A stretch of DNA of 64,000 bases from Escherichia coli (lineage in GTDB: Bacteria; Pseudomonadota; Gammaproteobacteria; Enterobacterales; Enterobacteriaceae): NCBI RefSeq assembly GCF_003334335.1, contig NZ_QOWQ01000002.1; one strand, given 5' to 3'. The number at the start of each line of letters is the position of its first letter. The first letter of the stretch is position 1. Under the pieces are notes generated by a model. It searched no databases. It was not told where the DNA came from and worked only from the letters and a program-made list of their open reading frames with translations. Shown here in pieces: positions 62,627 through 63,897 of this stretch. The translations under genes and the position numbers were made by a program.

Positions 62627-63385
62627 TCATTGATTCACCTCCTGCCTGTCGTCCGGCATTCGCTCACTACAGCTTATCCAACCATCCGGAGTTACCGGAG
62701 AGTTGCCCGATAGTGCATTCTGCTCCAGTGATGCTTTTACAAACCACGCTGCCTGAACTATAACGCCATGAATCCAGCGCAAATCAGCATCGCGATCTTT
62801 CTTTTTCATCTTTTCGCCACTTAAGGCCTTGCTTATGTGGCTGCGTACCAGGTCTTCATGTAATTCCTTCGCCTCCTCAATGGTGAAACCACCAGGCAGA
62901 AGAGCCGGAGTTACCGGAGAGCTGGTTGACGCTTCCGGGATTTCCCGAAAATTATTGGTTGACGAATTCTTGCTTTCCCGAAAGTTTCCGGACTGAAGCA
63001 TGTCGGTGCGGCAGGCGTTCCATATTTCGGCAGCAATATCGCGCTCGCTATCGGTTAATTTGTACGTGGAAACATAGCCAGAGAGCATTTCTACGTTTTC
63101 CGGAGTTGCTTCTTCCGGCACTACCGGCGCTGGCGGGGCGGCAAATAGATATCCGCCAAAGTCAGGAAGCTCTCCAATGGCCTGTACGAACTTTTGTTTG
63201 CCTACGTCAACTCCTAATGGGTAATGAGCTATAATCTTTGCCACCGGCTCTGCTTCCAGCGATACCAGTGCAATTCGTGCCAGTTCTTCCGCTTCTTCTG
63301 CTGGCAGTACAACGTTGCTACCCGGTCCGTATGTTTCGCGCCACTGCTTGATTGTCAGCAGTCGCCCTTTGGTAATAGTGATCAT
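62627..63385 (-). CDS. Hypothetical prophage protein (252 aa)
   Basis: Start overlaps stop of upstream gene (translational coupling); internal SPVTP repeats; C-terminus DGWISCSERMPDD resembles the start of DUF551-type phage proteins. Confidence 0.55.
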   Translation of the reverse strand: MITITKGRLLTIKQWRETYGPGSNVVLPAEEAEELARIALVSLEAEPVAKIIAHYPLGVDVGKQKFVQAIGELPDFGGYLFAAPPAPVVPEEATPENVEMLSGYVSTYKLTDSERDIAAEIWNACRTDMLQSGNFRESKNSSTNNFREIPEASTSSPVTPALLPGGFTIEEAKELHEDLVRSHISKALSGEKMKKKDRDADLRWIHGVIVQAAWFVKASLEQNALSGNSPVTPDGWISCSERMPDDRQEVNQ

Positions 63386-63897
63386 GCCGCGTTTCCTTCT
63401 TTCTTATTAACAATCACACCGTCATATATTTCATTAAGGTGCCCTCTCAACTCCATGCGCCTTAATGCAGATAACATGTAATCGCATTCAACCTGCTTAT
63501 TCCCAGTAAATGGCTTATCGTCAGGATTACCCCAACAGCAATTACCCCTGGGCCATCCATGTACTTTCCGTACTCTTCCGTTAACAACGTGAAGTAATCC
63601 CCAGCCGGGAGGTAAATCCTCAACTGAAATAATTTCCGGCTCACTAATAAAGAATCGCCAGTCGCCCATGCCAAGTGAGGGATTTTTACGGAAACGCTTT
63701 TTTCTATCTGCCAACAAGTCAGCACGAGAACACTTCGCCTCTATCAGGCATGATGCTGAATTTCTGAATCCCATAGCATCTGGCTGTTCTCCGGTACTGG
63801 TTACAGCAACAAAGCGGTCATGAAAGCAAACCTTGAACCCGTTGCGCTTAAGGAACTTGTACGCAATCTGACAGAGTTCGTGGTGTGTTAACGCCAT
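63382..63897 (-). CDS. Putative PD-(D/E)xK-family nuclease-like prophage protein
   Basis: Track ORF 63382..63930 begins at TTG; ATG at 63895-63897 with AGGAG RBS gives ~171 aa (MALTHHELCQIAYKFL...); contains D...IEAKC (D-x(n)-E-x-K) motif. Confidence 0.5.
   Translation of the reverse strand: MALTHHELCQIAYKFLKRNGFKVCFHDRFVAVTSTGEQPDAMGFRNSASCLIEAKCSRADLLADRKKRFRKNPSLGMGDWRFFISEPEIISVEDLPPGWGLLHVVNGRVRKVHGWPRGNCCWGNPDDKPFTGNKQVECDYMLSALRRMELRGHLNEIYDGVIVNKKEGNAA

Follow-up and report, generated by a model that had tools for sequence, protein, structure and literature searches.

A very common but unnamed MmcB-like PD-(D/E)xK nuclease of enterobacterial prophages

Among the commoner 'hypothetical' genes of enterobacterial prophages is a small one whose product is an MmcB-like PD-(D/E)xK nuclease. 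It is described here from a stretch of 64,000 nucleotides of Escherichia coli DNA (assembly GCF_003334335.1, contig NZ_QOWQ01000002.1; hereafter the window), in which it occupies positions 63382–63897 on the minus strand, from an ATG at 63897 to a TGA at 63382–63384. The open reading frame (ORF) is intact over its 171 codons and its translation falls in PHROG 9263/631. The protein is unnamed but very common, and it brings neither a new architecture nor evidence of a new mechanism or a new kind of system. It is very probably an active PD-(D/E)xK DNA nuclease homologous to MmcB. The chances that its role lies in phage replication, recombination or repair are about even. The combined reading, in which an MmcB-like metal-dependent DNA endonuclease acts on branched or damaged DNA in these processes, is held with moderate confidence.

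Homology to MmcB appears at the level of the family. The single sequence searched against the PDB gave only noise (E 0.26–0.95), and a signal arose only with the family profile, which matches the sequence of 3DNX at E 2.2e-5 with the PD, ExK and SRADF segments aligned. 3DNX is SPO1766 of Ruegeria pomeroyi, a member of PF06319, the family founded on MmcB of Caulobacter crescentus. All proteins returned by a search seeded with the 3DNX segment belong to PF06319 and carry the NCBI name 'MmcB family DNA repair protein'. When the alignment of the phage family is compared by hhalign with 24 MmcB-family proteins, the match reaches 98.2% probability (E 4.4e-14) over 126 columns, covering residues 6–150 and taking in the C-terminal helix with its conserved Arg-Arg pair. 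The conserved residues align to D39, E53, K55, S, R58, D60, D64 and K66 of the MmcB-family proteins. Common to both groups is an extended signature, E-x-K-x-S-R-x-D-F-x-x-D-x-K, which reads PD40...E53-A-K55-C-S57-R58-A-D60-L-L-A-D64-R-K-K67 in the window protein and VD39...E53-C-K55-S-S-R58-A-D60-F-Q-x-D64-x-K66 in MmcB.

The AlphaFold2 model, computed with the family alignment, has a mean predicted local distance difference test score of 95.2 and a predicted template modelling score of 0.88. Its elements are a helix (5–18), three strands (23–26, 41–45 and 48–54), two helices (58–64 and 68–71), three further strands (80–85, 100–105 and 108–113) and a final helix (134–150), and they contain the alpha-beta-beta-beta-alpha-beta core of PD-(D/E)xK proteins. 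D40, part of a conserved (P)D, opens strand 2, and E53 and K55, of the conserved (D/E)xK, lie within strand 3. This modelled placement of D40, E53 and K55 is the canonical geometry of a PD-(D/E)xK nuclease. An earlier note on this DNA had proposed such a nuclease, with MmcB-like among the folds named for comparison, and had pointed to profile searches and structure prediction as the way to check it; both lead to the PD-(D/E)xK fold and to homology with 3DNX and MmcB. Foldseek searches of AFDB50 and BFVD return members of the same family, under labels that include 'uncharacterized', 'YraN family protein', 'MmcB family DNA repair protein' and 'Holliday junction resolvase'. Several UniProt homologues, 35–44% identical (e.g. 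A0A3B8WHC9, A0A5M3Q205 and A0A6N8APC0), are named 'Adenylosuccinate synthase', almost certainly a propagated mis-annotation.

Conservation was counted column by column over 101 aligned homologues, a diverse set in which identity falls to ~35%. The motif across them is [D/E]27 ... E37-x-P39-D40 ... E53-x-K55-x-S57-R58-x-D60-F/L61-x-x-D64-x-x-K67, and the codons of this segment (residues 27–67) lie at 63697–63819 on the minus strand, with D40 at 63778–63780, E53 at 63739–63741 and K55 at 63733–63735. D40, D60, G78 and R81 are found in all 101 sequences; E37, P39, E53, K55, K67, R70 and W99 in 100 each; D64 and E137 in 99; and G76 in 98. Somewhat more variable are S57 and F61 (95 each), R58 (94), R147 (92) and R146 (91). 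Position 27 is acidic in 100/101 sequences, as E in 69 and as D in 31. E137, R146 and R147 belong to the C-terminal region (residues 134–167; codons at 63397–63498, minus strand), which lines up with the AARRL helix of MmcB proteins and corresponds to helix 134–150 of the model.

The catalytic 'PD' aspartate is D40, in the context E37-Q-P39-D40, 13 residues before E53. The earlier note had rightly picked out IEAKC, here residues 52–56, in a product of ~171 amino acids; it had placed the partner aspartate about 20 residues upstream, where the window protein has none, D27 and D40 being 26 and 13 residues from E53. D27 was considered as the 'PD' aspartate and rejected: position 27 is almost always acidic, but D40, which follows P39, is the invariant residue that opens strand 2. 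The note had also made its proposal depend on conservation of the motif among homologues, and E37, P39, D40, E53 and K55 are conserved at 99–100%. A bare D...ExK is weak evidence when taken alone, but here the motif is conserved across a family of 2553 representatives, and the gene is real and not a chance ORF.

The size and spread of this family are considerable. The exact 171-residue sequence occurs on at least 1000 public contigs, where its only name is 'hypothetical protein [Enterobacteriaceae]'. A word-indexed search yields 308 homologues, mostly of ~160–180 residues, across Enterobacterales, and HMMER, run exhaustively over 1.84 billion cluster representatives, yields 2553 at E≤0.001, of which 1232 reach E≤1e-10. 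Of 5426 complete E. coli genomes, 928 carry the gene, and one genome can hold as many as six copies. Phage records with the gene number 642, Stx1a- and Stx2a-converting phages among them, and the family extends to lytic Vibrio phages and Ackermannviridae. Codon comparison of nine homologues from viral contigs gives proportions of nonsynonymous differences (pN) of 0.19–0.32 vs saturated synonymous ones (pS) of 0.72–0.90, with dN/dS of ~0.10–0.15 where computable. The gene is under strong purifying selection.

Some occurrences call for separate mention. Among the 1297 matches to the gene in complete E. coli genomes, 248 are on plasmids, e.g. NZ_AP040955.1 (98 kb), and these are possibly phage-plasmids. 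In IMG/VR, several homologues lie on contigs of ~87–107 kb (L070, L072–L074, L076, L077, L079 and L082). The record OR844944.1 (38.5 kb), named 'Enterococcus phage Efm 3-10', matches at 45.6%, the value also given by Vi01-like Salmonella phages of the Ackermannviridae; for an Enterococcus phage this is odd, and the record may be mislabelled or contaminated. Long N- or C-terminal extensions are seen in some members (P0145, P0143, P0219, P0250, P0257 and P0267), either as real fusions or as merged gene calls. P0145 (428 residues) has ~260 extra N-terminal residues with a weak match to PHROG 32208, and the C-terminal regions of P0219 and P0267 match PHROGs 35913 and 16275. As functional clues these fusions were set aside: the extra regions match only PHROGs of 'unknown function', and some may be gene-calling artefacts.

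In the window, the start of the gene is well defined. A Shine-Dalgarno sequence graded strong (AAGGAG, 63904–63909, minus strand), read from the sequence, lies 6 nt 5' of the ATG within the 3' end of an Ea22-like gene. A longer form from a TTG at 63930 is present in the program-made ORF list. The ATG at 63897 is preferred because the same N-terminal Met is the start in most of the aligned homologues, from many genera, and the AAGGAG also favours it. The upstream ead/Ea22-like gene (3' end at 63899–64000, minus strand; TGA at 63899–63901, 1 nt ahead of the nuclease ATG) had been called truncated. This is true in the window, which cuts it at its end; the gene is complete (549 nt) in a 99.9%-identical annotated locus, here L001. 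On the downstream side, an ATGA stop/start overlap at 63382–63385 (minus strand) links the nuclease gene to a DUF551-type 'phage protein' gene (62627–63385), as seen in the sequence, the ORF list and the annotation of L001. Small same-strand genes tightly coupled through such overlaps are what the earlier note had described.

The 3.5 kb surrounding the gene are 99.9% identical to several E. coli chromosomes, and the annotation of L001 identifies the region as a prophage integrated beside mlrA (yehV). The closely packed order on one strand is yfdP, yfdQ, yfdR, three small genes, ead/Ea22-like, the nuclease gene, the DUF551-type gene, DUF4222, xisR and int; the nuclease gene is thus part of a translationally coupled leftward early block of the mlrA prophage. 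The integrase (60569–61855, minus strand) abuts the mlrA (yehV) ORF (59847–60494) in the window, and therefore the prophage is integrated at or into the mlrA locus, a site that Stx1 phages of O157:H7 also use. The same prophage carries a RusA gene in L001. Its leftward early region includes yfdP, yfdQ and yfdR (5'-deoxynucleotidase), as in CPS-53, and has no annotated Red/RecET-type recombinase gene in L001. Between this region and the repressor, L001 has two opposite-strand genes, one of the ECs1072 family and one for a BRCT-domain protein, which resemble inserted cargo; the stretches concerned are L001:19731–21648 and 22120–23888. Between xisR and DUF4222 lies a small ORF (62162–62296; L001:16663–16797), which the annotation of the near-identical locus calls a pseudogene because of an internal stop.

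The annotation of the nuclease gene itself is misleading. At L001:17883–18398, which corresponds to window 63382–63897, PGAP/RefSeq records a 'frameshifted' pseudogene (the N-terminal 179 nt) and a separate hypothetical protein of 110 residues (WP_001452608.1). The DNA of L001 is identical to the window across all 651 aligned bases, and the split is therefore an annotation artefact; the reading as a frameshifted pseudogene was rejected on this ground and on that of an unbroken 171-residue ORF conserved across genera. The annotated 110-residue C-terminal product is without D40, E53 and K55, so that nothing in the annotation reveals the nuclease motif. In many other E. coli genomes the gene likewise appears as 'hypothetical protein (x2)'.

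The genomic context varies among phages: in lambdoid prophages the gene belongs to early operons, and in lytic phages it has helicase or primase genes beside it. It was sampled in 80 related viral contigs (54–75% identity), on which ORFs were called and neighbours clustered. No neighbour is fixed among these 80 loci; the commonest, Ea22-like, occurs at 21, with variable offsets. In most cases the nuclease gene runs in the same direction as its neighbours and overlaps with them. The PHROG-annotated clusters are NinG/Rap (17 loci), NinB/Orf (11), NinI phosphatase (10), DUF551-like (10), P-like helicase loader (9) and ParB-like (9); a cluster of DnaB-type helicases (11 loci) was identified by sequence alone. 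Markers of nin, replication or late regions lie within 5 kb at 42/80 loci, and int/xis genes like those of the window at only 6/80. In Vibrio phage MAR10 the homologue directly follows DNA polymerase, primase/helicase and SNF2-type helicase genes, and in Vi01 and GR28A (Ackermannviridae) a DNA primase gene comes just after it. Three more distant metagenomic homologues, on phage-like contigs, have genes for PhoH, RNA ligase, an AAA ATPase, a DNA methylase and a 5'-3' exonuclease nearby, with no constant partner. A conserved partner gene of the toxin-immunity, restriction-modification or sensor-effector kind was looked for, and none is found in the 80 clustered viral loci or in the three metagenomic contexts.

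How the protein would work can be proposed. It would be a small stand-alone endonuclease, probably expressed early after induction or infection. D40 and E53, with the acidic residue 27 and/or E37, would bind Mg2+, and K55 would position or activate the water for attack, a mechanism known from other PD-(D/E)xK enzymes. The predicted isoelectric point of the 171-residue protein is 9.0; this basic surface and the conserved R58, K67, R70, R81 and R146/R147 may account for DNA binding. Cleavage is expected to be structure- or lesion-dependent and not sequence-specific, directed at branched, stalled-fork or damaged intermediates, and analogous to the action of Hjc-, VRR-NUC- or MmcB-type nucleases. 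Such an enzyme would be neither host-killing nor a defence nuclease. A more specialised variant, tentative and distinctly improbable, makes it a dedicated lesion- or crosslink-processing nuclease, expressed early by temperate phages, including Stx phages, for which mitomycin C and other DNA-damaging agents are inducers. Incision at interstrand crosslinks or blocked forks would then render the damaged template of an induced prophage replicable, as proposed for MmcB, which is hypothesised to remove interstrand crosslinks together with translesion polymerases (PMC9578287). If true, phages would bring with them a damage-tolerance step of their own, matched to the very signal that induces them.

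Several points weigh against a DNA endonuclease of phage replication, recombination or repair. The single protein has no Pfam match even at E≤10 and none in NCBIfam at E≤1, and 0 families of PADLOC-DB v2 match it at E≤1. All database names of the phage family members are 'hypothetical' or automatic labels, and the literature on MmcB, MmcB-like, DUF1052, PF06319 and SPO1766/3DNX yielded no experimental work on the phage family. Likeness to MmcB would in any case be a weak functional anchor, as the substrate of MmcB was never defined. A plain junction-resolvase role would be redundant, because RusA is encoded in the same prophage and NinG/Rap near 17/80 of the related loci. In a narrower form of the favoured explanation, the protein is specifically a Holliday-junction resolvase that works like Hjc, RusA or VRR-NUC and removes branches from phage DNA ahead of packaging; weakened by RusA here and by NinG/Rap elsewhere, this form is unlikely. 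Finally, the gene sits in a mosaic, variable position, such as accessory cargo would have.

Cargo of an anti-host or defence type is what the earlier note had suspected from the position of the gene. Under this explanation the protein would be an anti-host, exclusion or defence nuclease that degrades host, competitor-phage or plasmid DNA, or an abortive-infection effector. The PADLOC result counts against it, as does the lack of a conserved adjoining sensor, immunity or methylase partner. The gene is co-directional and translationally coupled in early lytic operons, and not separately transcribed; homologues sit within the replication modules of strictly lytic phages; and by relationship the protein stands nearest to MmcB proteins of the repair type and not to restriction or effector nucleases. 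Collectively, these features make a defence function rather improbable, and the suspicion was not upheld. Some proteins with the PD-(D/E)xK fold are inactive binders or RNA cutters, and this gives a precedent for a protein that has kept the fold and is catalytically inert or not a DNase, such as a DNA-binding regulator or an RNA-directed nuclease. Conservation of the canonical catalytic positions at 99–100% in 101 sequences would be unexpected for an inactivated scaffold, and the proteins nearest to it have been described as endonucleases of DNA repair (PMC9578287); such a protein is very improbable here. An MmcB-like endonuclease of phage DNA metabolism is preferred.

The assignment to the MmcB branch has practical consequences. 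It points to a concrete active site that can be mutated (D40, E53 and K55) and narrows the substrates worth testing to a few, and the phage family could help to define what MmcB-type nucleases cut. The analysis also brings to light a systematic RefSeq mis-annotation, in which often only the 110-residue C-terminal fragment is annotated.

Comparison with known families situates the protein more precisely. It matches PHROG 9263 (E 1e-120) and PHROG 631 (E 1.5e-93) over its full length. Both are existing database groupings of the family and both are of 'unknown function', without a record of the nuclease assignment. Its match to PHROG 5429, 'DNA repair protein', is faint (0.0046), and other family members reach ~1e-10. 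When the 101 members were scanned one by one against Pfam and weak matches were counted at E≤0.1, Hjc was found in 34, MmcB-like in 19, AHJR-like in four, UPF0102 in three and VRR_NUC in one; all these are families of the PD-(D/E)xK nuclease type. Hjc (PF01870; 1HH1, 1OB8 and 2WCW), the most frequent of them, and AHJR-like proteins have a minimal PD-(D/E)xK core of similar size, and their 'PD ... hhhE-x-K-S-R' segment aligns. VRR-NUC (PF08774) and YraN/UPF0102 (PF02021), matched in only 1–3 members, are clearly more distant than the MmcB-like proteins. The Cas4-like and RecB-type folds, which the earlier note had also put forward for comparison, were rejected: neither a conserved Cys cluster, such as the four Cys that bind an Fe-S cluster in Cas4/AddB, nor a QxxxY motif after ExK is seen in the 101-homologue alignment.

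The closest counterpart is MmcB itself. In 2005, DUF1052/COG5321 was predicted to belong to the PD-(D/E)xK nucleases and to be akin to the Holliday-junction resolvases of archaea, with an orthodox AD-E(V/I/C)K motif and no functional clue from genomic context (PMC1189080). MmcB of C. crescentus is described as an SOS-regulated PD-(D/E)XK endonuclease needed for resistance to mitomycin C and cisplatin (PMC9578287). On the phage side, the homologue in Vibrio phage H8 had already been annotated with the remark 'spo1766 structure', and MmcB-like genes are listed, without study, in a few phage genome papers. Near-invariant residues of the phage family, namely H5, E37-x-P39, R70, G76-x-G78, R81 and W99-G-L, have no counterpart in canonical MmcB. 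The distributions differ as well: the phage genes are on phages and prophages of many hosts, whereas MmcB is a chromosomal SOS gene and is described as almost exclusively proteobacterial (PMC1189080). Only one of the 101 members reaches PF06319 at E≤0.001, and Pfam or NCBI threshold membership is lacking, whereas profile-profile and structure comparisons with bona fide members both find homology. By these sequence comparisons, the window protein is a homologue of MmcB and not a PF06319 member by database threshold. The family as a whole can be read as a divergent, phage-borne sister group of PF06319 (formerly DUF1052/COG5321), one that the current Pfam model barely reaches.

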